Of a DNA stretch of 32,000 nt, positions 10,399 to 30,006 are shown in pieces. The translations under genes were made by a program, and so were the position numbers. The DNA comes from Candidatus Saccharimonadota bacterium (GTDB lineage Archaea; Nanohalarchaeota; Nanosalinia; Nanosalinales; Nanosalinaceae). The notes under the pieces were generated by a model. That model worked only from the letters and a program-made list of their open reading frames with translations, was not told where the DNA came from and did no database searches. Every line of letters begins with the position of its first letter. Within the stretch, counting starts at the first letter, position 1. The stretch spans positions 780,001 to 812,000 of the forward strand of contig NZ_CP107255.1 in NCBI RefSeq assembly GCF_029232205.1. The letters run 5' to 3'.

Positions 10399-11640
10399 TT
10401 ACTTTTCTTCTTCCTCTTTCTCTACTTCTCTCTCAGCTTCCTTCTCAAGGTTAGGCATCATATCCTTGGTGTCAGCGGCCTCAGCAATTTCAGAGGTATC
10501 AACGTTAGGCCCAAGATCCTTCTTCTTGTCCTCTTTCATCTTCTGGATATCCTTGCCTACTTCAGAGACAAAGTCTCTGGTCTCACTCTTCAGCTCGTAA
10601 ATCTCTTTCTCATCAACTTCATCAAGTTCCTTGGCCTTGACCTTCTCAATTACATCCTCCCAGCGGCCAAACATCTCAATGTGCTCATCGCCAACATCAA
10701 GATTATCTTCAACTACTCCAGGCAAGTCATCCTTATCTTCCGGAGGTGTGACACCTTGCGATTTAAGGGCTGCCACGTTGGCCTTGAGGAACTTCTTGTA
10801 GTCATCGACGATGCCCTTGACCTTCTTCCTTGCTCCCATCTGGGATACAAGTTTATGCATTCTGCGGACAAAGTCATCAGTCTTCTCAAGATGATCTTCA
10901 ACAGCCTGGCCCGTAACTTCTTCAGGATTTTTCTCTCCCAGATTTCCGAACTCGTGAAGCTCTCTTCCAATCTCCACATACTCTTCCTCAAGCATTCCCT
11001 GCTCTACAAACATCTCCTCAAGAGTATCCGGAACATTCTCCTTCGCAGGAGGAGCTTTCCCAGCAAGCATGATAGGGGCCTGACCTGCGTTGGCCATGGC
11101 CTGTTCAAGCTTGTGAGGAATTGAAGACCGGAAATTCTTCTCGGCCTTCTTGTAACCTGCAGCACCCATCTTCAACCTTTTCTTGACAGATTCCTGAGTT
11201 CCAGAAATCTTTCCTCTCTCAAGAAGCCTCTTTGCCGGCATGAAAAGGCCTGTATCGTATACAGGCTGGCCATTCCTGATTGCTTCGATTGCCAGAGGCT
11301 CTCCTTTTCTCAGAGAGTCCCAGAAATCAGTTAGGAATGGGAAATACTGAATAGTAATCCTGTCATCCGTTTCCTTAGCCAGATCAGTTACTTTACGCCT
11401 GATTTTCTTTTTGGCGTCTTCAGGTACATCCTTCTTCAATTTAGTATCGTCTAGTATTACAAGAGTGTCTATATCAGAGTCATAGCCGTGCTCTCCTTTA
11501 GGCACGCTTCCCCAGACAGCTACAACCTTTACTTTGTCTCCTAGTTTTTCCTGCAGCTTGTCAGAGAACTCCTCGACAGCTTCGATTCTTCTCTCCTGAG
11601 ATTTCTCTCTCATCTCCTTCAGTTTGTCTTTAGAACTCAT
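10399..11640 (-). CDS. Pol-beta-type nucleotidyltransferase fused to a HEPN-like helical domain, with a long charged C-terminal extension
   Basis: VVAVWGSVPKGEHGYDSDIDTLVILDD matches the GS-x(9-10)-D-x-D minimal NTase motif. It is followed by PLAIEAIRNGQPVYDTGLF and a helical segment (AEKNFRSSIPHKLEQAMANAGQAPIMLAGKAPP...MFVEQGML) resembling KNTase/HEPN-type C-domains. The last ~150 aa are charged helices ending EREVEKEEEEK. Confidence 0.7.
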   Translation of the reverse strand: MSSKDKLKEMREKSQERRIEAVEEFSDKLQEKLGDKVKVVAVWGSVPKGEHGYDSDIDTLVILDDTKLKKDVPEDAKKKIRRKVTDLAKETDDRITIQYFPFLTDFWDSLRKGEPLAIEAIRNGQPVYDTGLFMPAKRLLERGKISGTQESVKKRLKMGAAGYKKAEKNFRSSIPHKLEQAMANAGQAPIMLAGKAPPAKENVPDTLEEMFVEQGMLEEEYVEIGRELHEFGNLGEKNPEEVTGQAVEDHLEKTDDFVRRMHKLVSQMGARKKVKGIVDDYKKFLKANVAALKSQGVTPPEDKDDLPGVVEDNLDVGDEHIEMFGRWEDVIEKVKAKELDEVDEKEIYELKSETRDFVSEVGKDIQKMKEDKKKDLGPNVDTSEIAEAADTKDMMPNLEKEAEREVEKEEEEK

Positions 11641-11705
11641 TGATCAACCACATTAACCTCTTAGTCAAGACAAACTTAAAAACTTTTGCAATTATTTGTT
11701 ACCTC

Positions 11706-12122
11706 ATGGTAAATAATATCTGGGATAGGCTTCTTGACGAGAGCAAGAGAACCAGAAGTCTTCCAGGCCAGCTCAGATTTCTGCGTAAAACCTCTGAAGC
11801 AGATAATATTGCTTTGATGGGCAGCGACTACAACGAGAAAAACTTCTCAGATTTTGAGGAGACAGTTTTCGAGAACTACTCAGAGAACAACAACGCCAGG
11901 CTTTTTGCTTCCGAAGAATACAGAGAGGCCGTAGAAGAATCGGACAAGATTCACGAAGACAGTGTTTTCTTTTTCGATTATCCTGCACCAAGCCACCAGA
12001 TATCAGATATTTTCGTAAACTCAATCAACGGAGATAATACAGTGGCGTACGGGCCTAGAGAACACATAGATGAACTAGCAGATTTTTCCCCTGACAGAGT
12101 CAAAGGATTCTACAGAGAATAA
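11706..12122 (+). CDS. Hypothetical acidic protein (138 aa)
   Basis: ATG at 11706 lies about 25 nt downstream of the A/T-rich ACTTAAAAACTTTT. The ORF-track start at 11640 would abut the divergent NTase start codon. No recognisable motif. Confidence 0.55.
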   Translation: MVNNIWDRLLDESKRTRSLPGQLRFLRKTSEADNIALMGSDYNEKNFSDFEETVFENYSENNNARLFASEEYREAVEESDKIHEDSVFFFDYPAPSHQISDIFVNSINGDNTVAYGPREHIDELADFSPDRVKGFYRE

Positions 12123-12126
12123 AAAT

Positions 12127-14808
12127 TTACTTGTATTCCTCAGATTTCCACTCCATAGGCCTGTTGCCTGCCTGATCTATAGCTCCCGAACCCGTTGACG
12201 TGTTGTCGAAGTCCTCAGTCTGAAGAAGGCCGTCAAGAGGATCAAAGGCGTGCTCCTCGATCTTGGCCCATTCACGATCATAGCTTGAACGATCCATTCC
12301 GAAGAATCTGGCAATTAAGGCCTCTTTCTCGCTTCTGTAGTTTTCTCCCGGGTTGACATTGCTTGGATCAAGTTCTTCTGGAGTTACGCCTAGTGCAATC
12401 ATATCCATGGAGAGTCTCATCATGTAGCTTGATTCTCCTTTGTGCTCTGCAAGTTCGAAAAGAATTGTGGCTCTTTCACCAGGATTTCTCGCAAAGCCAT
12501 TCTCCACAAACCAGTGAAGCCATTCATAGATCAAAGTATTCCCTCTCTTGAAAGAACCGTGATGAGTACCTCGCTGACCTTCAACTCCAGGATCCATCAA
12601 GTGGTACTGTCTAAGCGTTTTCGCTATAGGCTTATCGGAGTCCAGCTCCAGCTCACTGTAATCAGAGGCCAGTTCCTTCTCCTGCTCGATAAACCTCTCC
12701 ATATCCCATTCAGGGTCAACTCCAAGAGATGCAACGTGCTCCATGTCAATAGTGAACTTTGCAGGCCTCTCATCGATCTCAGAGCTCAAGTGATCAAGGC
12801 CTCCAAGCTCTCCCTCCTCATCAAGTCTTTGACGAGCCGTCATGTTTATCGCATGAGCTGCAACAGCAATATCCTTCGATCTGAAAATTCTCAGCTTGTT
12901 TTGAGGGCTGCCGTTCATACTCTCCAAGTTAACTCCTATTCCAAATCTGTTCATCCAGTCAATCCACGTCCAACCCTCATTCTCAACCTCTTCAACCTCA
13001 TCGCTGTCAAGGCCTAGATCTCTTCCACGAACGTTGAAATGGCTCTTTCTCTGGGTGAAGTGGGCCCAAGCATAGCACGCAGAGGTCGCTGCAGCCACAT
13101 CCATTCTGAATTCATCGCTGTGCTCCAGCAAATCCATGTAGTGGTAAGTATCATCGTCGTTATCGTCGTAAACACCGTTTCTAACGTTTTTCAGATCTAT
13201 TTCAACATCTATATCGATATCATCTCTTTCCTCCCATTTCTCAACCAGAACCTCCCAGATGAATTCCGGGGCCTCCCAGCCCTTATGCGCATCGTGATCA
13301 TCATTGCTGCTGGCTGCCATCCAGGCCGGAATTATCTGGTAGAAAATTGTTGATTCTTTCCACATTTCTCTCTGGAACCTCTCATCATTTATCAGCCTTT
13401 GAACGAGATCTTCATGCATATACTCTTCGTCAATTCCTTCCCTATCTTCTGCGTCAAACAAGCTTAGGTCATCGCCTGAGAAAACATCCTCAGCGAGTTC
13501 CTCAATACCGTATTCCTGTTTTCCAATCTGGTACGCGTTCTCAAGAAGCCTGATCTGCTTTACCTCCAGGTGGCTCTGAAGACCCGCCCACTTGGCCTCC
13601 TGAGTCATGTAGCGTTCGTCTTCATCATCAGTGTCCTCCCAGAGCTTCAAAAGAAGATCATCTAGTTCTTCAATCACTCCGGATACTACAGAATCCAGAT
13701 CAACTTCGTCCTCGAGATCAGACATCAAGGCATCCATATCCGAGTGAAGATCAGGATCGCTAAGATTCTTTACAATTACGCCAGCTATCTCTCTTTGCCC
13801 AGTATTCCTTATTTCAAAGACCGAGTCATCCAGAAAGTTCAATCTAGGCCTGTTGCCCATACTCTCCATGAAATCCTCTAGACTCATCGATCTTACCCGA
13901 TCAAGACCATCATAATCATCACTTGCATCTTTAGTGGCCCTAAAAACTGGCATTTCCCAGTCAGAATTACTTAGAACCTCTCTCCAGTTTGTACCTGTAC
14001 CCTGATCTTGGCTTCTGGCCACAAGTACTGCACCTATTTTTTCTTCTATATCTTTGGCTTCATCCCGAAATATCTGCTCGGCAGCCTTGTGTTGGGCCTC
14101 TTTCCAGCGTCTATCAAATTTATCAGAGTATGAGGCAAATGTCTGATAGAACTGAAATGGATAGCTTGCTGTTTCCAGAAATAAAGTATAGTAGAGATTT
14201 CTCAGGAATCCAGGATTTTTGTAAATATTCTGCGAATGATGGTTCCTCTTCTTTCTCGAAGTCTCATCATAGTCGTTGGTTGTGAAACCGAAAGGATCGA
14301 CTCCTACGTCGGTCTCCATTCTTTCTTCTAGCGGAGGCAGCATCGAAGTGGAGATGTGAGGGTTTATTCTTCCAATATGGAATAGTGGTTCTCCGTTACC
14401 TCTTCTCTCAACTTCTTTCTTGAAAGCAGCCAGCTCCTGCAAATAGTTAGTAAAGTATTCCTCAACAGTATCGTATCCGTATTGCTCTCCCTGCCCGCTT
14501 TTCTGGGCGGAGGCGTATCCAGCATTCATATCGCTGTGAAGTGTTACATCGATACCAAGCTGATCGATTGTGGCAATCATCTCATCTCCTTCAAGATTGA
14601 AGGTCGAGGGATTAGTAATCTGAAGCTCCATTACAGAGCCTCCAACCTGAGACGCATAGCCAATTCTCTGGTCAAGAGGAGTCGGAACCTCTCCAACATC
14701 CATAGCCGAAGAGTTTCCAATCATGTAGTTAAGATCATCGTAGCCATCGCTGTTGCTCTCTCCCTCATTTCCAAAACTCTTCTTTACCGCGTCAAGAATA
14801 AATCCCAT
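12127..14808 (-). CDS. Large (893 aa) acidic protein; the N- and C-terminal parts resemble a split xylose isomerase-like / AP endonuclease 2 (Endo IV-type) TIM barrel around a ~400-aa insertion
   Basis: Ordered strand-end motifs: VMELQ, DVTLHSD (H91), RINPHIS (H151), FLETAS (E212) or GVNLES (E629), FTIDMEHV (D688/H691), YHLMDP (H736/D739), THHGSF (H749/H750), ILFELA (E785). This is pattern-based only. Confidence 0.5.
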   Translation of the reverse strand: MGFILDAVKKSFGNEGESNSDGYDDLNYMIGNSSAMDVGEVPTPLDQRIGYASQVGGSVMELQITNPSTFNLEGDEMIATIDQLGIDVTLHSDMNAGYASAQKSGQGEQYGYDTVEEYFTNYLQELAAFKKEVERRGNGEPLFHIGRINPHISTSMLPPLEERMETDVGVDPFGFTTNDYDETSRKKRNHHSQNIYKNPGFLRNLYYTLFLETASYPFQFYQTFASYSDKFDRRWKEAQHKAAEQIFRDEAKDIEEKIGAVLVARSQDQGTGTNWREVLSNSDWEMPVFRATKDASDDYDGLDRVRSMSLEDFMESMGNRPRLNFLDDSVFEIRNTGQREIAGVIVKNLSDPDLHSDMDALMSDLEDEVDLDSVVSGVIEELDDLLLKLWEDTDDEDERYMTQEAKWAGLQSHLEVKQIRLLENAYQIGKQEYGIEELAEDVFSGDDLSLFDAEDREGIDEEYMHEDLVQRLINDERFQREMWKESTIFYQIIPAWMAASSNDDHDAHKGWEAPEFIWEVLVEKWEERDDIDIDVEIDLKNVRNGVYDDNDDDTYHYMDLLEHSDEFRMDVAAATSACYAWAHFTQRKSHFNVRGRDLGLDSDEVEEVENEGWTWIDWMNRFGIGVNLESMNGSPQNKLRIFRSKDIAVAAHAINMTARQRLDEEGELGGLDHLSSEIDERPAKFTIDMEHVASLGVDPEWDMERFIEQEKELASDYSELELDSDKPIAKTLRQYHLMDPGVEGQRGTHHGSFKRGNTLIYEWLHWFVENGFARNPGERATILFELAEHKGESSYMMRLSMDMIALGVTPEELDPSNVNPGENYRSEKEALIARFFGMDRSSYDREWAKIEEHAFDPLDGLLQTEDFDNTSTGSGAIDQAGNRPMEWKSEEYK

Positions 14809-14810
14809 TT

Positions 14811-16421
14811 TTATTTCATCGTATTCAGGCCGTTTCCGATTTTGAAATCATAGTAAAACGAGTTAGTGATCTGGCCCTGCAGCTCTCCAAGAGCCGCGCC
14901 AGAATCAATTACATACTCATCTGTCTCTCCAAGGAATTTTCGCAACTTGAGCTCTACACCTGAGTAAAATTCAGGGCCTCCACCACCATTCTCCTTGGAG
15001 AACTCGGTGCCGAGTATTTCATCTATTGCCTCTACATAGTCTTCATTTAGATAGTCTATCTCATCCAGGCCGTCCTCAATTCTTCTGATCTGTGAGGAAA
15101 GTTCAAGAGGGACGCTGCCTTCTACCTCGTCTTCGATGGCCTGACGAAGTTCTCTTACCCTCATACCTTCTGATTCTCGGGCTTCCTTGAGTTCATCGCC
15201 AGTCTCCGATGAGAATTCGCCAGTATAGTTTTCCATCAGGTCTTTCATCCTGTTATCCATCTTGTCTATCTTCTCCTGGAATATCCCCTCGAAAATATGT
15301 TTGTCGACGATAGCAGGGAATATGAATACTACAGCTGTTGCAGGGCCTGCGGAGTTTTGCTGAGGTTGATCTCCGCCCGCTAGATTTACGTGCACTCCGT
15401 GAATATAGACTACTCGGTAGTGTGTTATTTCATCTTCGTTATCTGTTACAATTGGCTGGCCTTCTTCGCTTTTCAGGCCTCTGGCACATATGAACTCCAT
15501 GTTCTTCTCCATAGAGGCGTATCCGCCGAAAGTGTAGTATTTGGTCATTTCGTCGTAGTAGTCGCTCTCTTCTTTCTGATCAATCATCACCATGTCCTGA
15601 ACATAAGGCTGCAGCCAGTCATGAGTCTCTTCAATAGCTCTTTCAACTCTGTTAAGCTCTCCTTTCAGCTCTTCAAGTCTCTTCTGGACCTCGCTACCGT
15701 AGAGATCCTTCCAGTCCTCGTACATCTTGTACTTTTTCTTGAGAACAGCTTTCTCATTGGCCGGAATATCTCCAAGCTTATTACCTTCCTCAAGATCCTC
15801 CACAGACTCTATCTCATGGAAATCAGCAGTAATAGAAGGATAAATATTTCTCTCCTGCAAAGTCTTCATGGCGGCCTCTCCACCCTGCTGCGAACCTGCA
15901 TTCGCACCATCAACAAGCTCAACAAAATCAGACTTCAACTGAGTCTCATCCTTGGCCTTGATGGCCTCTACCCGCGACCTTAGCTTTCTGATATCGTGCT
16001 CTAGCATGTGTTTCTCTTTCTTCAAACGGCCGATACTCTGCATTTTTTCCTGAATATTTTGCTCGGCCTCCTTCCTTCTCTGCCGGAAAGATTGATGCAG
16101 CTGATTCTGAGGAGATATAAACACTTTTTCCTCAGTCTTCTTTACCGTATAATCCATATCATCGAACGCATCGGGCGCACCAAGAAGTATACCATAAGCT
16201 GTGCCACTGCTGCCGGCAGAAACCTTTAATTTATGCTGATGATCTCCCATGATAGGCCTTAGAAAGTCTGTTCCAATCTCATTCTCCAGCTCGTCCAACG
16301 AAGTGATTTCTCCACTTCTTATCTTCTTACCTATATCCTTGTCGCCTACCACGGCCTCTCCATTGACCTGAAATGTGTGGCCGAACTTGGGTTTTTCATC
16401 GCCGCTGTTTCCGTGACTCAC
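14811..16421 (-). CDS. Hypothetical 536-aa coiled-coil protein, first gene of a two-gene operon
   Basis: Long clean ORF with a GTG start (no in-frame ATG nearby). Its stop is 2 nt before the ATG of the 893-aa gene. Charged heptad-like segments include RRKEAEQNIQEKMQSIGRLKKEKHMLEHDIRKLRSRVEAIKAKDE and EVQKRLEELKGELNRVERAIEE. No P-loop or other enzymatic motif seen. Confidence 0.75.
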   Translation of the reverse strand: MSHGNSGDEKPKFGHTFQVNGEAVVGDKDIGKKIRSGEITSLDELENEIGTDFLRPIMGDHQHKLKVSAGSSGTAYGILLGAPDAFDDMDYTVKKTEEKVFISPQNQLHQSFRQRRKEAEQNIQEKMQSIGRLKKEKHMLEHDIRKLRSRVEAIKAKDETQLKSDFVELVDGANAGSQQGGEAAMKTLQERNIYPSITADFHEIESVEDLEEGNKLGDIPANEKAVLKKKYKMYEDWKDLYGSEVQKRLEELKGELNRVERAIEETHDWLQPYVQDMVMIDQKEESDYYDEMTKYYTFGGYASMEKNMEFICARGLKSEEGQPIVTDNEDEITHYRVVYIHGVHVNLAGGDQPQQNSAGPATAVVFIFPAIVDKHIFEGIFQEKIDKMDNRMKDLMENYTGEFSSETGDELKEARESEGMRVRELRQAIEDEVEGSVPLELSSQIRRIEDGLDEIDYLNEDYVEAIDEILGTEFSKENGGGGPEFYSGVELKLRKFLGETDEYVIDSGAALGELQGQITNSFYYDFKIGNGLNTMK

Positions 16422-16474
16422 ATCTACATTATAGGTTTAATTTCTACTTAAAATCTGGAGTCTTCTGGTAAACA

Positions 16475-16484
16475 AGTTAAATTA
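16475..16484 (+). promoter_or_regulatory. TATA-like box AGTTAAATTA upstream of the 157-aa membrane protein gene
   Basis: The identical 10-mer AGTTAAATTA recurs at 29244-29253 upstream of the NrtR-like gene. It lies about 40 nt before ATG 16521. Confidence 0.4.
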
Positions 16485-16520
16485 CTGGGCCTACAATTGT
16501 ATGATAGAGTGATTTAACCG

Positions 16521-16994
16521 ATGGAGACACCGCTGCTCAAGAGACGGCTTAACCCTATTCTACTGATTTCGACAGTTCTGACACTGGCCCTTATCGCAGG
16601 AATGTCAGTGGTTTACCAGGACCAGCTTAACAACCTTGTATCCAGCAAAAAAGACCTGCAGGAGGAGTTGAAGGATAAAGAACAGACAATCGACTCTCTG
16701 GAAAGCGAAAGACAGGATCTGGAAGAGAGAACATCAACGCTTAACAGCACTACAGCACAGCTTCAGGAAATAATAAACGAGAAAAACCAGACTATCGACG
16801 AGCAGCAAACCACGATAGGCGGCCTGAACACGAAAATCAATGAGCTTCAGACGACAAGAGATGAACTAAATAACACCGTCAATAATCTGAGAGGAAACCT
16901 AACAGACGTCCGAAGCGACATTAACGATGTTTGTGGCGACCCTAACATCGACAACCTAACTGAAGACAGCCAGGACATCTGTGACAACTACTGA
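16521..16994 (+). CDS. N-terminally anchored extracellular coiled-coil protein (157 aa)
   Basis: One TM helix (ILLISTVLTLALIAGMSVV) followed by Q/E/N/T-rich heptads. Five N-x-S/T sequons (NST, NQT, NNT, NLT, NLT). C-terminal Cys pair (VCGDP...ICDNY). Confidence 0.7.
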   Translation: METPLLKRRLNPILLISTVLTLALIAGMSVVYQDQLNNLVSSKKDLQEELKDKEQTIDSLESERQDLEERTSTLNSTTAQLQEIINEKNQTIDEQQTTIGGLNTKINELQTTRDELNNTVNNLRGNLTDVRSDINDVCGDPNIDNLTEDSQDICDNY

Positions 16995-17000
16995 TCTATT

Positions 17001-17744
17001 ATGAGAATTGAGAAACTGCTCAAACAGTTGAAGAGAGAATTTATCAAAGTAAACGTTATCCAGGCCTGCCTAGACACAATTCTATTCTTCCTCATATCCA
17101 ACCTGGGGCTTTTCTTCATCTCTGTCAGAATATTCGAAAACATAAGCAATCTCTACGCCCTTATGGCCCTGAGCACAGTATTCGGAATAATAGACTTCTA
17201 CAGAAGAAACCAGCGTTACAGACTTGAAATATACGAGGAGGAAAACCCCGAGCTGAGAGAAGTACTGAGAACCGCCAGAGACAACCTTGATCAGAGAAAC
17301 GTGGCATCTCAGGCCCTCTTCGACGATGTGATGGAGAGAGCACGATCAGTCACCTCGGAAAGCATAATCCCAAGCAAGGAAATCATCCAGAAAATTCTTG
17401 CAGTAGGAGGCCTTTGCTTCCTGACCGTTCTCTCCGGTGTAGCAGACATCAACCTCCAGAACGATACAAGAAATGTTTTCACAGATATCAGAGGTGGCGG
17501 ATCAGAAGGTGGCGGCAACTTCACTCTTGGAAACTCCTCAAAAATTGAAATAAGAGATGTAAATGCAAGCTATCCTGCAGCAAACTTCACTTTCGATGTT
17601 CAGGGCGAGGGAGAAAGCTCAAAGCCAGAGATAAGGCCTTATTCTTCACGTGAAAATATTCTCTACGAGTCTTCAACTGAGGGCCTTGATGAAGATCTTG
17701 ATCTTGCGCGAGAGTACAGTATTGCTATAAAGGAGTTCGAGTAG
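17001..17744 (+). CDS. Membrane protein (247 aa) with a sequon-rich extracytoplasmic segment
   Basis: Hydrophobic helices at about aa 25-45, 52-68 and 132-150. G-rich linker GGGSEGGG, then NFT, NSS, NAS, NFT sequons. Starts 6 nt after the preceding gene and lies upstream of moxR. Confidence 0.65.
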   Translation: MRIEKLLKQLKREFIKVNVIQACLDTILFFLISNLGLFFISVRIFENISNLYALMALSTVFGIIDFYRRNQRYRLEIYEEENPELREVLRTARDNLDQRNVASQALFDDVMERARSVTSESIIPSKEIIQKILAVGGLCFLTVLSGVADINLQNDTRNVFTDIRGGGSEGGGNFTLGNSSKIEIRDVNASYPAANFTFDVQGEGESSKPEIRPYSSRENILYESSTEGLDEDLDLAREYSIAIKEFE

Positions 17745-17757
17745 AGTGCTGCTTGAG

Positions 17758-17769
17758 AAATTTAAATAG
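17758..17769 (+). promoter_or_regulatory. TATA-like box AAATTTAAATAG about 27 nt upstream of the moxR ATG
   Basis: Position is consistent with a leaderless moxR transcript. Confidence 0.4.
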
Positions 17770-17790
17770 CTCGGGATTCAGTATTTAGTT

Positions 17791-18756
17791 ATGCAGATAT
17801 CGAACCTGGATGAGGCAGGGAAGTACGATAAGGCTTCCGAGAAACTTAATGAAATCAAAGAAGAAGTCGGCAAAGTCATTGTAGGCCAGGAAGAAATAAT
17901 TGAAAACGTTCTGATATCGATTCTGTGCGATGGAAACGTTCTACTGGAATCAAACCCGGGAATGGGTAAGACGAAGATGATTCACACCGTTTCAGAGGTT
18001 ATGGGCTTGGATTTCTCCCGTATACAGAACACGCCAGACCTTATGCCTTCAGACATAACCGGAACACACATAATCGATGAATCCTCCGGAGAAACAGAGT
18101 TCATCTTCCAGAGAGGGCCGATCTTTGCAAACATGGTGCTAGCAGACGAAATCAACCGTGCAACACCGAAGACACAATCCGCTCTGTTAGAGGCTATGCA
18201 GGAGAAACAGGTCACGGTAGGAAACCAGAGTTACGAACTGGACAAACCTTTCTTCGTAATGGCAACACAGAACCCAATCGACCAGGAAGGAACATATCCA
18301 CTACCGGAGGCCCAGAGAGACCGTTTCATGATGAAACTGGAGCTTGAATATCCGAAAAAAGATGAGGAACAGGAGATTGTCGAAAGATTCACATCCGAAC
18401 TGAACTACGAACCAGAGCTCAAAGAAGTAATTTCAAAGCCTTCAGTAGTCAGACTTCAGGAGTTCACACGGCAGGTACCGATCGCCGACGACATAAAGGA
18501 AAGAGCAATCGACATCGTAACATCAACCAGAGATCACGAAGATCTGGATTACGGGGCCTCACCAAGAGCATCAATGAACATTGTACTGGCAGCCAAAGGC
18601 CGCGCACTGATCAAAGGCCGCAACCACGTCTCGGCATCAGATATCAACTCTGTGGCCAAACCAGTTCTACGGCACAGAATAGGCCTGAGCTTCAAAGCCG
18701 AGAAGAAAGGAAAAGACGAGGATAAAGTTGTAGAGGAAATAGTGCACTCGGTATGA
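17791..18756 (+). CDS. moxR: MoxR-family AAA+ ATPase
   Basis: Walker A LESNPGMGKTKM and Walker B/sensor VLADEINRATPKTQSALLEAMQE. The motif ATQNPIDQEGTYPLPEAQRDRF is typical of the AAA_3/MoxR family. Confidence 0.92.
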   Translation: MQISNLDEAGKYDKASEKLNEIKEEVGKVIVGQEEIIENVLISILCDGNVLLESNPGMGKTKMIHTVSEVMGLDFSRIQNTPDLMPSDITGTHIIDESSGETEFIFQRGPIFANMVLADEINRATPKTQSALLEAMQEKQVTVGNQSYELDKPFFVMATQNPIDQEGTYPLPEAQRDRFMMKLELEYPKKDEEQEIVERFTSELNYEPELKEVISKPSVVRLQEFTRQVPIADDIKERAIDIVTSTRDHEDLDYGASPRASMNIVLAAKGRALIKGRNHVSASDINSVAKPVLRHRIGLSFKAEKKGKDEDKVVEEIVHSV

Positions 18757-19610
18757 TAGATATAGAGTTCCTTGACGAGCTGCAGAAATTCCAGCTTGCT
18801 CTCACCAAGCACTCAGACGAAAGAAGCCAGGGAGAGCAGTCAAGCAGCTTTACAGGCCAGGGAATGATCTTCAAGGACCACAAACAGTACGCACCAGGCG
18901 ATGACATCCGAAAGATCGACTGGAAGGCCTACGCCAGAACAAAGGATTACTTTGTGAAAAGGTTTGAGGAGGAGAAAAACCTGACTCTCCACATTCTGCT
19001 GGACAGAAGCAGTTCGATGGATTATGGAGAACCAAAAAAATACGACTACGGCGGGAAAATAGGGATAGCCATAGCAGACATGGCCCTGAACACGAACGAC
19101 AGGTTCCGCTTCTCAGTATTCTCCGAGACAATTACCGATATTTCTTCAGGCCGCAGAAATTCAAACACGCCAAGCATTATCTCAACACTCAACCAGTTAA
19201 GGAAGACTCCTGAAAGCAGGGTTGAAAGATGCCTTACAGAGTACAGCAGCCGGATCAAGAACAAGTCCGCCGTAATAATAATTTCAGACTTCCTAACCGA
19301 CCTCGAAGATATAGAATCAGGAATTGAAAGCCTGAAAAACACAGAAGTAATACTCGTAAACGTCTTCGACAAAGAAGAAATTGACCCAAGCTTCGAGGGA
19401 GATACTATACTGAAAGATCCTGAATCCGAGTCAACGCTACGAACCTATCTCTCAAGCAGAACCAAAAACAAGTACCAGAAACAGCTCAAAGAACACACGG
19501 AACAGATAGAAGAGATAGCAAACAAACACGGGGCCCGATACCTACAGGTTTCTACAGGAGATGACGTGCTTGAATCATTCCTTGAAGTCTGGCAGGCAAT
19601 CAACAGGTAA
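18753..19610 (+). CDS. DUF58 domain protein (vWA-like partner of MoxR)
   Basis: GQGMIFKDHKQYAPGDDIRKIDWKAYARTKDYFVKRFEEE...LLDRSSSMDYG is the characteristic DUF58 signature. ATGA overlap with moxR. Confidence 0.9.
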   Translation: MIDIEFLDELQKFQLALTKHSDERSQGEQSSSFTGQGMIFKDHKQYAPGDDIRKIDWKAYARTKDYFVKRFEEEKNLTLHILLDRSSSMDYGEPKKYDYGGKIGIAIADMALNTNDRFRFSVFSETITDISSGRRNSNTPSIISTLNQLRKTPESRVERCLTEYSSRIKNKSAVIIISDFLTDLEDIESGIESLKNTEVILVNVFDKEEIDPSFEGDTILKDPESESTLRTYLSSRTKNKYQKQLKEHTEQIEEIANKHGARYLQVSTGDDVLESFLEVWQAINR

Positions 19611-22683: not shown

Positions 22684-23028
22684 ATGCGGTTCGAAGTCGA
22701 GGTAGTGAACGAAGAACTTCTACCTGCCATAAGAAGCATGATAGCCAACCAGCTCAAGCAGGAGTACGGACTGAAACAGTCAGAAATAGCGGAAAAACTG
22801 GGAGTAACACAGCCCGCAGTATCACAGTATTTGAGCAACTCAAGGGCCGATCAAGACATAATCCAGCGTTTGAAGGATGATCCGCAGATCGGGATACTTG
22901 TGAGAGATGCAGCATCAAAGGCCGCTACAGATGAAATATTCGCACAGGAAATATCAGAAATAATCAGAAATGTGCGGGACAAAGGAATAATGAAAGAAGA
23001 ATTCAGAGATACTTACCGAATAATCTAG
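22684..23028 (+). CDS. Small HTH transcriptional regulator (XRE/COG2522-like)
   Basis: LKQSEIAEKLGVTQPAVSQYLSNSRA is a classic helix-turn-helix. 114 aa. Confidence 0.75.
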   Translation: MRFEVEVVNEELLPAIRSMIANQLKQEYGLKQSEIAEKLGVTQPAVSQYLSNSRADQDIIQRLKDDPQIGILVRDAASKAATDEIFAQEISEIIRNVRDKGIMKEEFRDTYRII

Positions 23029-25106
23029 GTGAAGCCTGTAAAGGCCTCCTCAGCTTTCTCCTCTTCCTCCTCAACAAAGTCTCTGAACCTGTCAAAAAGA
23101 TTTTCTACAGGCTCCATCGAGAACTCATAATCGCTCAGGTCAATTCCTCCAAACTGGAGATCTTCGATAGCCGAGAAATCAAAGACGTAATCTTCATTCA
23201 TGTAGAAGTAACCTACAGTTCCTCCACCACCGATAACGAGCAGCAATAGGAATCCAAAGACAAACTTGTTTCTCTGGGCCTTCGAATGCTCCTGCCTGAC
23301 CTGTTCATACCCTTCAGAGGCCTTAGAGTACTGAGAATCAACATTCTCCATCAAACTTGCAGCCCTGTAATAATCTCCTTCCTGAATAGCCCTCTGGGCC
23401 TCAGCCATTGTCTCATTAATATCAGAGAACTCTTCCTCCAGCTTCTTCTGCCTATCACCAGAAACCCTGCTCATCAACTCGGAAACATTAGATCTCAGGC
23501 CTTCAAACTCCGAGAACTCGCGATCAAACCTTTCAGAAATATTCTCCTCCTGATCACTGTTAGCCTCAACAATCAAATCAAACTGCCGGCTGACATCAGG
23601 ACTCTTCGACGAAAGCCTGACATTGTGCCTCCCAAGATTAGAATCAGAAGTCTCAACCGTGAAACTTGTAGACCTGTTGTCACCAGGCTTCAGATTACTG
23701 ACAATACTAGTATGATTCGAAAAACCAGTGTCAAGCTCGAAAGTCAGAGAAGGAATCAAGAGATCTCCAGTATTCTTAACCCATATATTGAAAGTCTTCG
23801 AACTTCCAGCCGTAACACTCAACTCCTCAAGGCCTGTAACCTGTGCAGAAGGCGTGGCATCAGGCCTGAACTCAAAAGTAAGATTAGCATCGCTACTCCA
23901 TCTACCGGCCTCATCCTTCGCCCACACATACAATGTGTGATCCCCCGCATCAAGACCTGAAGTATCAACGTCGAAAGAACCATCGGCCTCAACACCGTTA
24001 CTATCAGTATCAAGAGTTGACTCATCGAACCGGTAAACCAGCTCCGTGATGTCAGAAGCCGAATCAGAGGCCTCATAATCAACCTCAAAATCAGTATTGA
24101 AAACACTGACAACAGTACTCAAACCATTGACACTTGGCTTCGAATAGTCAAAAGTATACTCATACTCTTTCGTCACACTGTTACCGGCCTCATCCTTCAA
24201 AACAACCTCCAAAGTAGTCTGAGTATCCCTCATAGGCTCAACATCACACTCATAACTTGTAGTACCGTCAACATCCTGAGTATCGGCCTCAACAGCATCC
24301 CGGCCACCAAGCTTACAGGTAACAGTAATATCAGAAGGCTCAGCAGGATCCTGCTCCTCCAGAACTATATCAAAAGTATACTCATCCTTATTCTCAGGAG
24401 TCGCAAAAACCTGAGGCTCCGGATTAATCCTCGGCTCCTCATCACCCTCATACTCATCATCATAAGTGAAATCGATATCCTCAGTATCAGAAAGGCCTAC
24501 CTGATCAGAGGTCGTGGCTTCTATAGTATATTCGGAATTGTGATCAAGATCTGACTCAAAATCAGGTGAGAAGGTACATTCCTGACCATCACAGTCCTCA
24601 GTCTCAGAATAAATTTCATCTCCCTCAGAATCTTCAACAATCACCTCTAAATCATTCAGATCTGTGTGGCCATCTGAAGCTGTAATCTCAAAGTTAACTG
24701 AATCAGAATTAAGTCTCGCATTATTATCTACAGGAATATCTATTGACGGTTTGCCGTTATCAACAGTTATGCTCCTTGTTTCCTCCGGACCATCAGTTAC
24801 ATTTGCTCGCACAGTATAATCTCCGGATCCAGGATCTCCAGTACTCCACTCAACACTCGCATATCCGCTTGTAGAATCAACATTATCATCTATACTCTGC
24901 CAATCTCCACCATCTTCTCTATAATCAAAACTTACAGTATTGCCCTGATTGGCAGAATCAACAGAAACATTCAGAGTTACAGTACCTGTGACCGGACTAT
25001 CAGGAGATTCCCATGTAAGGGCCGATACGCCGGATAGTGTTAGAAGGGTTAGAGTTGCGAGAATTGCTATCTTGAGAGTCAGTTTTTTCTCGATGAGTAC
25101 CACCAT
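23025..25106 (-). CDS. Type I membrane-anchored cell-surface protein with Ig-like/CARDB-like repeats
   Basis: N-terminal signal-like segment LKIAILATLTLLTLSGVSA. Several ~90-aa beta-rich acidic modules. A CARDB-like segment (SVTAGSSKTFNIWVKNTGDLLIPSLTFELD...LKPGDNRSTSFTV). A juxtamembrane coiled coil, a C-terminal TM helix (FVFGFLLLLVIGGGGTVGYFYM) and an acidic tail. Multiple N-x-S/T sequons. Confidence 0.8.
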   Translation of the reverse strand: MVVLIEKKLTLKIAILATLTLLTLSGVSALTWESPDSPVTGTVTLNVSVDSANQGNTVSFDYREDGGDWQSIDDNVDSTSGYASVEWSTGDPGSGDYTVRANVTDGPEETRSITVDNGKPSIDIPVDNNARLNSDSVNFEITASDGHTDLNDLEVIVEDSEGDEIYSETEDCDGQECTFSPDFESDLDHNSEYTIEATTSDQVGLSDTEDIDFTYDDEYEGDEEPRINPEPQVFATPENKDEYTFDIVLEEQDPAEPSDITVTCKLGGRDAVEADTQDVDGTTSYECDVEPMRDTQTTLEVVLKDEAGNSVTKEYEYTFDYSKPSVNGLSTVVSVFNTDFEVDYEASDSASDITELVYRFDESTLDTDSNGVEADGSFDVDTSGLDAGDHTLYVWAKDEAGRWSSDANLTFEFRPDATPSAQVTGLEELSVTAGSSKTFNIWVKNTGDLLIPSLTFELDTGFSNHTSIVSNLKPGDNRSTSFTVETSDSNLGRHNVRLSSKSPDVSRQFDLIVEANSDQEENISERFDREFSEFEGLRSNVSELMSRVSGDRQKKLEEEFSDINETMAEAQRAIQEGDYYRAASLMENVDSQYSKASEGYEQVRQEHSKAQRNKFVFGFLLLLVIGGGGTVGYFYMNEDYVFDFSAIEDLQFGGIDLSDYEFSMEPVENLFDRFRDFVEEEEEKAEEAFTGFT

Positions 25107-26892: not shown

Positions 26893-28047
26893 ATGAGCAC
26901 GACAACACAGACTGGAAAGTTCGATCTGCCGGAAAACCACGAAAAATTCACAGACAAGTACTTCCTGAGATCGAGGGAGATACTTGAGCAGGAGGGCCTC
27001 AACCCCGAGGTAGCGGTAAAAGTATTTGCCAGGGGAGAGGGAGAAGTAGCGGGCCTGGAAGAAGCAGCTGCAATTGTAGACAAGTACTCTGAAAGCGAGG
27101 ATACCGAGTTGCATGTTACTGAGGCCGACGAGTTCGAGACGAAAGACCCATTGATGGTGTTGAAAGGGCCTGCACAGGATGTGATTGATCTGGAGACAAT
27201 GTATCTTGGCGCAGTATCCCATGGATTGACAGAGGCCTCCCCAGATCACGAGACCGTTGATCCCGAGGAGTTTGGTGAGGCTGTTGGAGAAGTAACTGAT
27301 ATCTATGACGTGCCTCTTCTCGAGTTCGGCGCCAGACACTACCACTGGACTGATACCGCTGACCTGGCCAGAGCTGCGTACGATAACGGAGCAGTCGGAA
27401 CCTCCACAGATGTCGGTGCTGCAACCTTCGGTGAGGAAGGCCTTGGCACAACGCCACACGCGTTAACAATTATACTTGGCGAAGAATACGGAGAGGACGA
27501 GGCGACAAGGAAGACTGCCGAGCTTTTCGACAGGAACATGGATGAAGATATCCCAAGGACCACGCTAGTCGATACATGGAACCAGGAAATTGACGACGCA
27601 CTCGAGACAGCAGAGTACTTCGAAGACAGAGATGTAGAATACGGTTTCCGGGTTGATACCTGTGGAGAAAACATTGCACAGGGCGGAAGGCCTGAAAATT
27701 CAGAGACAGGGCCTTATGAGACAGGTACAGGAGTCAGAATAGAATCAGTCAAGGCTCTGAAAGATGCATTGCGTGAGAACGGTTACGACGATGCAGAAAT
27801 CGTCTTATCCAGTGGATTCGGAAATCCTGAGAAAGCAGAGGCCTTCCACGAGGCTAACGTCGAGTACGAGGAAGAGCACGGTGAGAAGCTGTTTGATGCT
27901 GTCGGTGCCGGCGCATTCTCCGATGGAATACATGCAACCGCCGATATCTACGAGATCAACGGCGAAGAGTTCTCCAAAGTAGGCCGTGAGGTTGACGCCG
28001 AGGCAATGGAAGAATACGTCGAGAATCAGATGAGACAGGTGATTTGA
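26893..28047 (+). CDS. pncB: Nicotinate phosphoribosyltransferase (archaeal ~390-aa type)
   Basis: N-terminal FTDKYFLRSREILEQEGLNPEVAVKVFAR. TIM-barrel PRTase size and layout. AAGGTGA box at 26881-26887. Adjacent to pncA. Confidence 0.8.
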   Translation: MSTTTQTGKFDLPENHEKFTDKYFLRSREILEQEGLNPEVAVKVFARGEGEVAGLEEAAAIVDKYSESEDTELHVTEADEFETKDPLMVLKGPAQDVIDLETMYLGAVSHGLTEASPDHETVDPEEFGEAVGEVTDIYDVPLLEFGARHYHWTDTADLARAAYDNGAVGTSTDVGAATFGEEGLGTTPHALTIILGEEYGEDEATRKTAELFDRNMDEDIPRTTLVDTWNQEIDDALETAEYFEDRDVEYGFRVDTCGENIAQGGRPENSETGPYETGTGVRIESVKALKDALRENGYDDAEIVLSSGFGNPEKAEAFHEANVEYEEEHGEKLFDAVGAGAFSDGIHATADIYEINGEEFSKVGREVDAEAMEEYVENQMRQVI

Positions 28048-28048
28048 G

Positions 28049-28774
28049 ATGAGTGCAGAGAGCTTCGAGGTAAGGCCTGACGGTGGAAGCATTGTGGACG
28101 ACGCAATCGCTGCCTACGGAGAAGATACTATTTTCTGGAACGTTGACACACAGTACGACTTCATGAGGCCCGATGGAAAACTGCCTGTAGGAGAAGGAAA
28201 CGGAGCAGAAGATATCGAAGATGCTCTGGCAGAAGTAACCGAGATAGCCCGTGAAAAGGACATACGTGTAGTAAACACCGCGGACCATCACAATCAGGAC
28301 TCAGCCGAATTCTCGGAGGATCCTGATTTCCAGGAAACCTTTCCTCCTCATTGCCTAGCAGATTCAGAAGGCGCAGAATACGTTCCTGCTACACAGCCTG
28401 AAAATCCTCTGGAGCTTGACTGGAGAGATGAAGCAGACTGGAGCAAAGTAATGAACCACGAAGGAGACTTCGTACTATACAAGGACGCATTTGATGTATT
28501 TGCTGGAGAACCAGAGTCTCCTCATGCAGAAGATCTTGTGGAAACACTTGATCCTGACAGAGCAGTAGTTTATGGAGTTGCAACGGATGTCTGCGTTGAT
28601 TATGCAATTGAAGGCCTGATGGATCAAGGAGTAGAAGTATACGTAGTAGAGGATGCGACAAAAGGCATTGATCCAGAGGCCTCGAAAGATTCAATCCAGA
28701 AATGGAGTGAGAACGGTGCTACAATCGGAAGCACGGATGGCCTTAGCGACTATCTGGAGAGTGATGGCCTATGA
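28049..28774 (+). CDS. pncA: Nicotinamidase (isochorismatase-like cysteine hydrolase)
   Basis: NVDTQYDFM (catalytic Asp), ADHHNQDSAEF...FPPHCL..SEGAEYVP (metal site and the WPxHC-type motif), VYGVATDVCVDYA (catalytic Cys). Confidence 0.85.
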   Translation: MSAESFEVRPDGGSIVDDAIAAYGEDTIFWNVDTQYDFMRPDGKLPVGEGNGAEDIEDALAEVTEIAREKDIRVVNTADHHNQDSAEFSEDPDFQETFPPHCLADSEGAEYVPATQPENPLELDWRDEADWSKVMNHEGDFVLYKDAFDVFAGEPESPHAEDLVETLDPDRAVVYGVATDVCVDYAIEGLMDQGVEVYVVEDATKGIDPEASKDSIQKWSENGATIGSTDGLSDYLESDGL

Positions 28775-29232
28775 GCGTATCTGAACTGCTGGAAGGTGCC
28801 AGAGATACGTATGATGAGCTGGAATCGCTGCATCAGGAGAAAAGAAAACTGGAGGCCGATATCATGGAAGAACAGCAGAAGGTAGAGGATTCAGTGATTA
28901 TGGCCCTCTATCAGATACAGGACGATCTGGGAGATGATGAGGCCTATACCTTGATGCATTCAACAGAGACAGGTAGAGGAGGCCAGTACAGTTTTGATGA
29001 AGTATTGACCGCTGAAGGTGTTGAGGCCCGAAATGTTACCAGGAACGGCGAACCAGGTTATAGTGGCGATGATATGTGGATGTGGCCTGGTAGCTGGGAT
29101 AGCTTTGAGGAACCTCTGGATATTGAGGATGAGTACCTGGTAGGAGAACGCGATAGTCAGGGTTTCTTCAGGAAGCTTCACAGAAGAATGTCGGAGGATG
29201 AGATTCCGGAGTCCAGTTTCTTCTACGACTAG
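28771..29232 (+). CDS. Hypothetical acidic protein (153 aa), translationally coupled to pncA
   Basis: ATGA overlap with the pncA stop. N-terminal helix, then a Trp/Gly-rich segment (GEPGYSGDDMWMWPGSWDSF). No motif recognised. Confidence 0.65.
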   Translation: MSVSELLEGARDTYDELESLHQEKRKLEADIMEEQQKVEDSVIMALYQIQDDLGDDEAYTLMHSTETGRGGQYSFDEVLTAEGVEARNVTRNGEPGYSGDDMWMWPGSWDSFEEPLDIEDEYLVGERDSQGFFRKLHRRMSEDEIPESSFFYD

Positions 29233-29243
29233 GGCTCCGGAAC

Positions 29244-29253
29244 AGTTAAATTA
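29244..29253 (+). promoter_or_regulatory. TATA-like box AGTTAAATTA upstream of the NrtR-like gene
   Basis: It is too close to ATG 29260 but about 25 nt from the in-frame ATG 29275, suggesting a leaderless mRNA starting at 29275 (MPSTKHSEN...). Confidence 0.4.
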
Positions 29254-29259
29254 TTGTAG

Positions 29260-30006
29260 ATGAGACACGAAGATATGCCTTCCACGAAACACAGTGAAAA
29301 CGTCAGCGAAGACTACGGCGACAACCCTGAGGACTATGATCCTGACGAGTTCGATCATCCCTCTGTGACTGTTGACGACATCATCTTTACAGTGAAGGAT
29401 GACGATTTGAAAGTCGCGTTGATCAAGAGGAAGAGATGGCCTTTTGAGGGAAAATGGGCCTTGCCAGGAAGTTTCGTGGACATGGATGAATCGCTTGAAG
29501 AAGCAGCTGAGAGAACACTCCACAACAAGACGGGTGTAGGAGAGGATGTATACATGGAACAGCTCTACACATTTGGAGAACAGGACAGAGATCCTCGTAC
29601 AAGAGTTATCACAGTAGGATACTTCGCGCTGGTACATCATGAAGACGTGGAGCTACAGAAAACAGATGATGTAGAGGCCATTGAATGGCACTCAGCGTAT
29701 GATCTACCTGAACTTGGTTTCGACCATGAAGAAATAATCGAATACGCGGTCAAAAGACTGAGATGGAAATTGGAGTACTCGACAGCAGTTTTCTCACTAC
29801 TGCCTGAAAAATTCACTTTAAGCCAGCTCCAGAACACCTACGAGGTAATACTGGATAAAGAACTGGATAAGAGAAACTTCAGGAAAAAGATTCACAAACA
29901 CGAACTCGTACAGGAAACAGGAGAAAGAGAGAAGAACGTATCGCATAGACCTGCCAAACTTTATACTGCGAACAAAGATATTGGAGAAATAGTTGAGATC
30001 CTTTAA
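29260..30006 (+). CDS. NrtR-like protein: degenerate Nudix domain plus C-terminal winged-helix domain (probable NAD-metabolism regulator)
   Basis: The Nudix box reads S-FVDMD-E-SLEEAAE-R-T-L-H-N-K-T-G-V, so the REUxEE glutamates are replaced by T, N and K. The C-terminal LRWKLEYSTAVFSLLPEKFTLSQLQNTYEVILDKELDKRNFRKKI...HRPAKLY matches the NrtR wHTH pattern. The true start may be 29275. Confidence 0.7.
   Translation: MRHEDMPSTKHSENVSEDYGDNPEDYDPDEFDHPSVTVDDIIFTVKDDDLKVALIKRKRWPFEGKWALPGSFVDMDESLEEAAERTLHNKTGVGEDVYMEQLYTFGEQDRDPRTRVITVGYFALVHHEDVELQKTDDVEAIEWHSAYDLPELGFDHEEIIEYAVKRLRWKLEYSTAVFSLLPEKFTLSQLQNTYEVILDKELDKRNFRKKIHKHELVQETGEREKNVSHRPAKLYTANKDIGEIVEIL

Follow-up and report, generated by a model that had tools for sequence, protein, structure and literature searches.

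Two adjoining genes on the minus strand of a nanohaloarchaeal genome (assembly GCF_029232205.1, contig NZ_CP107255.1, positions 780,001 to 812,000 of the forward strand, a stretch of 32,000 nucleotides that we will call the window) encode an 893-amino-acid (aa) protein, which with high confidence is a TIM barrel of the xylose isomerase-like PF01261 superfamily cut in two by a domain-sized insertion, and a 536-aa partner protein without a credible match to any fold by Foldseek. The order of partner gene, barrel gene and, often, a third gene for a nucleotidyltransferase fused to a HEPN-like domain is conserved across two archaeal phyla, the Nanohaloarchaeota and the Aenigmatarchaeota, and the barrel carries at its strand ends a predicted metal-binding constellation of the endonuclease IV type. 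A first-pass annotation of the window, made from its letters alone, had singled out the two genes as an orphan operon, and here we discuss what became of that suggestion, what the module may do and which other explanations have to be weighed. The features needed for this discussion, in coordinates of the window, are the following.

14811..16421, minus strand: gene of the 536-aa partner protein (open reading frame, GTG start)
12127..14808, minus strand: gene of the 893-aa barrel protein (open reading frame, ATG start)
14167..14808, minus strand: N-terminal barrel half, aa 1-214, strands beta1-beta4, with E61, H91 and H151 (from the model, conservation and hhalign)
12949..14166, minus strand: insertion domain, aa 215-620, between barrel unit 4 and beta5, mainly helical with one beta-hairpin, acidic
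12241..12948, minus strand: C-terminal barrel half, aa 621-856, beta5-beta8, with E629, D688/E690/H691, H736, H750 and E785, followed by two helices
12127..12240, minus strand: C-terminal tail, aa 857-893, ...PLDGLLQTEDFDNT...NRPMEWKSEEYK, plus the stop codon; predicted to be disordered, and conserved

The two genes lie 2 nt apart, exactly as first annotated, the junction on the minus strand reading ...ATGAAATAA-AA-ATGGGA..., that is, a TAA stop codon, a 2-nt spacer and the ATG of the barrel gene. The 893-aa product is 100% identical to a 'hypothetical protein' that NCBI lists for Ca. Nanohalovita haloferacivicina, and the remark that neither protein could be placed in a named family stands, since searches of Pfam, NCBIfam and PDB sequences with both of them gave no meaningful match; an HTH_28 match on the 893-aa protein (E 0.26) and coiled-coil matches on the 536-aa protein were set aside as noise. 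Neither Pfam nor NCBIfam holds a model dedicated to the 893-aa family, and the literature that we searched offers no description of the 893-aa/536-aa family, in keeping with the opinion that the system is undescribed. If 'orphan' was meant as unique, the word has to be given up, because the 893-aa protein has 54 homolog clusters (at the 90% identity level, nearly all full length, with identities from 74% down to 39% among the nanohaloarchaeal homologs and with all named ones from Nanohaloarchaeota) and the 536-aa protein has 164 full-length clusters, all nanohaloarchaeal, with 120 homologs among the matches listed being 493-570 aa long and at least 44% identical. Relatives also exist beyond this phylum. 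A profile of the 893-aa family, run with HMMER over 1.84 billion representatives, found 109 proteins, the Aenigmatarchaeota relatives among them ranging from E 4e-15 to the cut-off of 1e-3; these distant relatives are mostly 500-745 aa long and were confirmed at 125 loci in GTDB species genomes, almost all of them from Aenigmatarchaeota where a phylum is named, and one divergent member also comes from 'Candidatus Aenigmarchaeota'.

The split barrel and its predicted metal site

The AlphaFold model of the 893-aa protein, built on the family alignment (mean pLDDT 84.9, pTM 0.81), consists of eight strand-helix units whose strands occupy residues 28-33, 59-63, 87-91 and 145-148 before the insertion and 626-629, 683-688, 732-736 and 780-785 after it. 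From these strand positions it follows that the chain exits the barrel after unit 4 and re-enters at strand beta5, and the conserved residues of the protein sit at or just past the strand ends of the model. The same arrangement can be read from the Aenigmatarchaeota homologs, 23 of 38 of which match PF01261 (AP_endonuc_2, best E 8.9e-17) and no more than one of which matches any other family; their N-terminal halves align to profile positions 7-92 and their C-terminal halves to positions 112-248. When ten relatives were tested singly, two exceeded the gathering score of 31.1 (P0246 with 34.3 bits and P0260 with 35.6 bits), and when the insertion was removed in silico, the relatives P0221 and P0274 covered positions 11-247 and 7-221 of the 249 in the profile (E 8.7e-7 and 6.6e-6, respectively). 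In addition, a profile of a barrel-only alignment spanning both phyla (A5) was compared with the PDB, and all 14 of the 14 sequences that it matched belong to this superfamily, the best being MJ1311 (3wqo, E 1.3e-4), followed by the apurinic/apyrimidinic (AP) endonuclease of African swine fever virus (ASFV), Apn1, tagatose epimerase, AsbF and endonuclease IV, with the endonuclease IV chains of the PDB reached at E 0.09-1.3 only. For M. jannaschii, MJ1311 appears in a published table as the predicted homolog of endonuclease IV (PMC2770678).

Taken as transitive homology joined to a predicted fold, these results leave us with little doubt that the 893-aa protein belongs to the PF01261 superfamily, and the proposal of a TIM barrel split by an insertion is thereby borne out by the model, the Pfam matches and the profile search alike. 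Its place within the superfamily is less firmly drawn, and we slightly favor the branch of endonuclease IV and MJ1311 as the nearest one. We do not call the protein an endonuclease IV, because the curated NCBIfam models of that enzyme gave no match to it and one ligand differs. Between nuclease, isomerase and oxidase, all of which had been considered formally possible at the outset, the sequence evidence leans toward the side of endonuclease IV and MJ1311.

All nine short motifs from which a barrel had originally been suspected are present at VMELQ 59-63, DVTLHSD 87-93, RINPHIS 147-153, FLETAS 210-215, GVNLES 625-630, FTIDMEHV 685-692, YHLMDP 735-740, THHGSF 748-753 and ILFELA 782-787. Among the candidate ligands named in them, H91, H151, E629, D688, H691, H736, H750 and E785 are invariant in an alignment of 34 nanohaloarchaeal sequences, as are E61 and E690, whereas E212, D739 and H749, which had also been proposed, are not conserved. 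In A5, where the identity between the phyla is 18-24%, H91, H151, E629, D688, E690, H736, H750 and E785 are still invariant and H691 is nearly so, one member having Gln. For comparison, residues 69, 109, 145, 179, 182, 216, 229, 231 and 261 of E. coli Nfo are H, H, E, D, H, H, D, H and E in the nfo sequence, and we take these nine residues to be the ligands of the trinuclear zinc site in the published Nfo structure. Conserved counterparts exist for eight of the nine, with H69, H109, E145, D179, H182, H216, H231 and E261 of Nfo corresponding to H91, H151, E629, D688, H691, H736, H750 and E785 of the window protein. In local hhalign comparisons that fall short of significance, the Aenigmatarchaeota counterparts of H91 and H151 lie on Nfo H69 and H109, and H736, T748 and H750 lie on Nfo H216, D229 and H231, so that the window protein has T748 where Nfo has D229; many Aenigmatarchaeota have His there. 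The local motifs compare as follows.

Nfo ILPH69; window protein VTLH91
Nfo NFH109PG; window protein INPH151IS
Nfo VIE145N; window protein NLE629S
Nfo ID179TCH182; window protein ID688MEH691
Nfo MH216LND; window protein YH736LMD
Nfo D229RH231; window protein T748HH750
Nfo LILE261; window protein ILFE785

The protein therefore resembles endonuclease IV (Nfo, and likewise MJ1311 in 3wqo) in its (beta/alpha)8 barrel, its superfamily, the order of the ligands at the strand ends, their similar spacing outside the insertion and the DxxH and HxxD-like local motifs, which together amount to a predicted metal-binding constellation of the endonuclease IV type. It departs from Nfo in the insertion that separates units 4 and 5, of 400 aa here and about 230 aa in Aenigmatarchaeota, in some 110 additional C-terminal residues ending in a conserved tail, in Thr or His at the D229 position, in an extra invariant E690, in an acidic overall composition and in a conserved adjacent partner gene.

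A Foldseek search of the barrel model against the PDB gave L-ribulose 3-epimerase, YcjR and the tagatose/allulose 3-epimerases as top matches, with probabilities of 0.96-1.00 (a search against viral structures gave no match), and this raises the possibility of a sugar or sugar-phosphate isomerase, epimerase or dehydratase whose insertion and partner would have a part in oligomerisation or regulation and whose gene would be linked to the nucleotidyltransferase gene by chance. The ketose 3-epimerases and YcjR share the Pfam family, PF01261 consists mostly of such enzymes, the relatives P0274 and P0282 carry the JGI name 'sugar phosphate isomerase/epimerase', and the E-D-H-E subset by which these enzymes hold a single metal is present as E629, D688, H736 and E785. 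However, they are about 290 aa long, have no insertion and are without the four further conserved histidines (H91, H151, H691 and H750), which make the ligand set richer than that of a single-metal epimerase and are typical of the endonuclease IV site; MJ1311 and the AP endonucleases rank ahead of the epimerases in the profile search, and a coiled-coil partner gene kept adjacent across two phyla would be hard to explain. The sugar metabolism of DPANN archaea is, moreover, very reduced, and we regard a sugar enzyme as improbable.

A second possibility arises from the ligands themselves, since iron-dependent DUF692 oxidases share the endonuclease IV-like pattern (H/H/E/D/H/D-or-N/H/E, common to endonuclease IV and MbnB-type enzymes), and MbnB-type enzymes depend on a partner from a gene of its own, a parallel to the conserved gene pair. 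The 893-aa protein could accordingly be imagined as a multinuclear iron oxidase with an obligate partner, like MbnBC and TglHI, that modifies a peptide or protein, and it does resemble these systems in its TIM barrel, its similar ligand pattern and its separately encoded partner, as far as sequence and model go. Against this, neither protein family matched DUF692 (PF05114) or DUF2063 in Pfam scans, the profile matches in the PDB include relatives of endonuclease IV and no MbnB or TglH chain, the partner is of a coiled-coil/beta type, and the window holds no conserved candidate for a precursor peptide gene nearby, all of which makes an oxidase of this kind very improbable.

Insertion, tail and partner protein

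The roughly 400-aa insertion had been called extremely acidic, a description of which the direction is right and the degree is not, in that residues 215-620 contain 25.4% D+E (pI 4.2) and so exceed the barrel halves (15-19%), yet six other proteins of this halophile's window already reach 18-23%. Toward its end (about aa 480-620), W496, H508, W518 and H583 are invariant in Nanohaloarchaeota. In the non-halophilic Aenigmatarchaeota the insertion stands in the same place and is likewise helical, though shorter (172-306 aa, typically about 230), and with a pI of 4.7-6.4 it is the most acidic part of a barrel protein with a median pI of 6.3, at loci whose proteins have a median of 8.8. Since the insertion is acidic in these non-halophilic archaea too, its acidity appears to be a conserved property and not merely an adaptation to salt. 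The Aenigmatarchaeota partner and nucleotidyltransferase, with median pI values of 8.8 and 9.1, are both basic and hence complementary to the acidic barrel protein.

The C-terminal tail, too, belongs to the most strongly conserved parts of the protein, with E846, W847, E851, F855, P857, L858 and L861 invariant in the C-terminal region of the nanohaloarchaeal proteins and E890, E891 and Y892 nearly so, and its pLDDT is below 50 at aa 857-882 and 886-893. It can be written as EHAFDPLxGLL...EW..EEYK in Nanohaloarchaeota and as EH..DPLKGLL.VPEEEYT..S.AA..GK.PEEWKKEELR in Aenigmatarchaeota, the last residues being EEYK in the former and EELR, EEFQ or EEYR in the latter. Predicted disorder combined with high conservation is the signature of a docking peptide, and judging from the model the tail is probably one. 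The penultimate residue, aromatic or Leu after acidic residues, recalls C-terminal docking motifs. The canonical HbYX proteasome-docking motif was considered for ...EEYK and rejected, as the residue before the aromatic or Leu is Glu and not hydrophobic.

The partner had been described as free of catalytic motifs, and indeed no recognisable catalytic domain emerged by Pfam, PDB sequence or fold. In its AlphaFold model (pLDDT 74.7) two long hairpins of helices (107-155 and 221-279) are accompanied by a beta-sheet of residues 303-373; profile searches of PDB sequences gave no credible match either, and a Pfam scan of 29 Aenigmatarchaeota members was equally empty. Conservation between the phyla is confined to the first two thirds of the protein, where H142, D143, R145, D171, P195, D200, F201, K230, W237 and P272 are found in at least 90% of the sequences of both phyla. 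Two leads were tried and dropped: the names 'aMBF1' and 'multiprotein-bridging factor' that databases give to relatives of the partner were not reproduced in an NCBIfam scan, and recurrent weak matches of the Aenigmatarchaeota partner alignment (A9, profile positions about 346-474) to PDB chains of mitoribosomal mS35, at E of about 0.01-0.03 and thus short of significance, were judged insufficient.

A large insertion, a coiled-coil partner and a docking-type tail suggest a big assembly, and one could go further and suppose that the barrel has lost catalysis altogether, its conserved residues serving metal-dependent folding within a structural or scaffolding assembly only. The full ligand set is, however, kept across two phyla at 20-25% overall identity, which is what a selected active-site signature looks like, and a purely structural role is accordingly the least probable of the readings discussed here, to be given very little credence.

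Gene neighbourhood across two phyla

The features that surround the pair in the window are listed here.

10399..11640, minus strand: gene of a 413-aa protein, a fusion of a Pol-beta-superfamily (MNT/KNTase-type) nucleotidyltransferase and a HEPN (UPF0332)-like domain, with a helical C-terminal extension
11640..12122, plus strand: small acidic open reading frame between the barrel and nucleotidyltransferase genes
16422..16520, no strand: divergent, AT-rich intergenic region of 99 bp upstream of the partner gene (sequence read directly)

Gene order was read at 80 Aenigmatarchaeota loci after genes had been called and clustered, 65 of the loci having enough upstream DNA and 63 being scored downstream. 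In 58 of the 65 the gene immediately 5' of the barrel gene, on its strand, is that of the partner, mostly at an intergenic distance of -37 to +50 nt; another 6 loci have it no more than three genes away. In every nanohaloarchaeal locus examined the two genes adjoin, and the locus tags of three further genomes place them side by side too (GKQ38_00490/00495, ABEJ69_01185/01180 and ACI9LV_000591/000592), so that the pair does co-occur in other genomes, as it should if the two belong together. The unit is larger than the two genes first proposed, however, for the nucleotidyltransferase gene at 10399..11640 also belongs to the neighbourhood. The sequence of partner, barrel, either no or one other gene, and nucleotidyltransferase is found in five of five nanohaloarchaeal-type loci, namely the window, Nanosalina (L082), a JGI brine contig (L083), Nanohalobium constans (L085) and L086, the last from an intermediate, non-halophilic lineage and confirmed by hidden Markov models at E 1.6e-82 and 1.5e-125. 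Downstream of the Aenigmatarchaeota barrel genes a nucleotidyltransferase of 375-460 aa, often in two copies, comes next in 30 of the 63 loci and no more than three genes on in 5 others (35 of 63). This third conserved gene and the spread into a second phylum are what the first-pass annotation missed.

The 413-aa protein matches PF01909 above the cut-off (E 3.5e-8), its profile finds kanamycin nucleotidyltransferase at E 3.9e-9 and, weakly, the HEPN protein AF0298, and the GS...DxD...DD residues (including G44, S45, D56 and D58) are invariant. HEPN/UPF0332 appears in the annotations of its relatives, which also give PF05168 matches and carry the JGI name nucleotidyltransferase/UPF0332. The window protein is 31% identical over 350 aa (E 2e-53) to the product of the gene downstream of an Aenigmatarchaeota barrel gene, and within Nanohaloarchaeota the nucleotidyltransferases share 75-92% identity, a conservation well beyond that of the barrel protein. 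Like MNT-HEPN systems and kanamycin nucleotidyltransferase, the third gene has a GS-x10-DxD core, followed by a helical HEPN-like domain; unlike MNT-HEPN, it is fused in one chain of 375-460 aa with an extra C-terminal helical region, and unlike a toxin-antitoxin pair of that kind, it stands in a housekeeping-like context and keeps its 75-92% identity across a phylum. The Rx4H motif of HEPN (RKxxEH) is intact in Aenigmatarchaeota and lost in Nanohaloarchaeota, the window protein included, where FGNLGEKN replaces it (relatives P0297-P0416).

Between the barrel and nucleotidyltransferase genes, the open reading frame at 11640..12122 has no family match and probably encodes a real acidic protein, to judge from its sequence and from genes of 194 and 200 aa that occupy the same slot and orientation in L083 and L085 (only 16-21% identical to it); the slot is empty in L082, and membership of this frame in the module is uncertain. 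The window copy seems shorter at its C-terminus. In L086 the barrel gene is separated from the nucleotidyltransferase gene by a 640-aa pullulanase/alpha-amylase-like gene (L086:8616-10538, plus strand). The 99-bp region 5' of the partner gene contains a TTTAAGTA stretch about 25 nt before the GTG start and is presumed, as a putative promoter region, to serve the operon.

In 52 of the 65 Aenigmatarchaeota loci two tandem paralogs of about 175 aa run divergently from the partner gene (e.g. L005:282-809 and L001:3016-3513, both minus strand). The window lacks them, and they match neither a Pfam or other family nor the PDB; in Aenigmatarchaeota they may be additional parts of the module. An ordinary 290-aa PF01261 protein (E 3.4e-7) is encoded a few genes 3' of the split barrel gene at 14 loci, e.g. 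L037:10032-10913 (minus strand). Housekeeping genes make up the wider surroundings in both phyla: in Nanohaloarchaeota these are the operon of the A-type ATP synthase and a cluster of MoxR and DUF58 genes, in Aenigmatarchaeota ABCE1 and DNA ligase, both frequent neighbours, and a kinase. PADLOC assigned no defence family to the barrel protein or the partner and gave generic nucleotidyltransferase matches only for the third gene, a result that together with the stable position beside the ATP synthase operon led us to reject a defence island. Scans of the window for Rfam families and tRNAs gave no match.

Divergent from the pair, positions 16521-19610 (plus strand) encode a coiled-coil protein of 157 aa whose N-terminus appears to be hydrophobic, a DUF7502 protein, a MoxR-type AAA+ ATPase and a DUF58 protein, and Nanosalina (L082) and Nanohalobium (L085) have this cluster at the corresponding place beside the pair. 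Farther away, positions 26893-30006 (plus strand) encode a phosphoribosyltransferase with QRPTase_N, an isochorismatase-family (nicotinamidase-like) protein, a 153-aa protein without a family match and a protein that joins a NUDIX domain to an NrtR winged helix, a possible cluster for NAD salvage in a reduced genome with an NrtR-type regulator. The 693-aa protein of 23025-25106 (minus strand), whose matches to bacterial Ig-like domains are all below threshold, may sit on the cell surface and bear on host attachment.

What the module may do and why it matters

The explanation that we prefer for the whole, and that we put forward tentatively and as somewhat less probable than its contrary, is a split-barrel metal phosphoesterase complex acting most likely on nucleic-acid ends. 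The barrel would be a multinuclear-metal phosphoesterase that cuts a phosphodiester or phosphomonoester bond, its substrates would be nucleic-acid ends such as AP sites, 3'-blocking groups or RNA 3' ends, and the nucleotidyltransferase would act on the same substrate by adding nucleotides to the end that the esterase has healed. The partner might be a scaffold or might clamp the substrate; of the acidic insertion one may think as a lid or as the surface on which the basic partners dock, and of the disordered, conserved C-terminal tail as a docking peptide. The parts of this proposal deserve very different degrees of trust, in that the split PF01261 barrel is the part in which we have high confidence, the formation of one putative complex by the proteins of the module seems to us about evenly poised or slightly favored, and the nucleic-acid substrate is doubtful.

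Several observations weigh against this explanation, beginning with the barrel itself, for the 893-aa protein of the window, whether full length or with its insertion excised, gives no PF01261 match at E up to 1, and the Foldseek scores are weak with partial coverage (E about 0.05 over about 138 columns), as is expected when 400 residues interrupt the barrel. The hhalign comparisons of the family alignments with the single Nfo sequence are in register locally and not significant (E 0.13 and 0.16), and Thr or His in place of D229 implies that the third metal site differs from that of Nfo. Nor do the ligands fix the chemistry, because DUF692 enzymes share the pattern and the E-D-H-E of the top-ranking folds is part of it. 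Since some Aenigmatarchaeota loci encode an ordinary 290-aa PF01261 protein nearby, the AP endonuclease of the lineage is not necessarily the split enzyme, and the nucleotidyltransferase is unlinked in about 44% of the Aenigmatarchaeota loci. Lastly, an acidic insertion in an enzyme that is acidic overall is unexpected for a nuclease that binds DNA.

This acidity adds to the appeal of the main rival, a writer/eraser pair in which the MNT-type nucleotidyltransferase would put a nucleoside monophosphate (NMP) on a protein hydroxyl or a small molecule, the trinuclear-metal barrel would remove it through cleavage of the phosphodiester and the coiled-coil protein would be substrate or adaptor. The KNTase/MNT-type group modifies proteins or small molecules rather than extending nucleic acids, and MntA attaches NMP to a protein hydroxyl of HepT. 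The third gene is of this type and fused to HEPN, it is linked to the barrel gene, and an acidic barrel enzyme with its insertion suits a protein or small-molecule substrate rather better than DNA. On the other hand, the Tyr near the C-terminus is not kept in Aenigmatarchaeota (where the tail ends ...EELR), the frequent lack of linkage to the nucleotidyltransferase counts here as well, and we know of no de-AMPylase with this barrel fold, so that we rate such a pair as unlikely.

Whether nucleic-acid ends are the substrate, as we prefer to think, or a nucleotidylylated protein or small molecule, an important and probably housekeeping role is suggested by a nucleotidyltransferase that remains 75-92% identical within a fast-evolving phylum and by a gene pair that stays adjacent across two phyla. 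A bolder version, which we consider doubtful, would make the three proteins an undescribed, lineage-defining machine of the two phyla, in which a trinuclear-metal barrel with an acidic lid, a partner of new fold holding the tail and a nucleotidyltransferase-HEPN protein that hardly varies within a phylum would together perform an essential end-processing reaction or a reversible nucleotidylylation.

What is new here is a domain-sized insertion in a known type of catalytic fold, together with a conserved tail, a partner of new fold and a module of three genes. The very small genomes of DPANN archaea encode many conserved proteins without an assigned function, and in this setting two 'hypothetical proteins' have become a concrete object, with a catalytic domain of known type, defined predicted ligands and two conserved partners. 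If the module turns out to be an end-processing machine or a de-nucleotidylylase, it would represent a new architecture in the endonuclease IV superfamily, and it would be a marker family that links Nanohaloarchaeota with Aenigmatarchaeota; were it truly a lineage-defining machine, it could take over, in genomes as reduced as these, a function that is performed by other proteins in other archaea.

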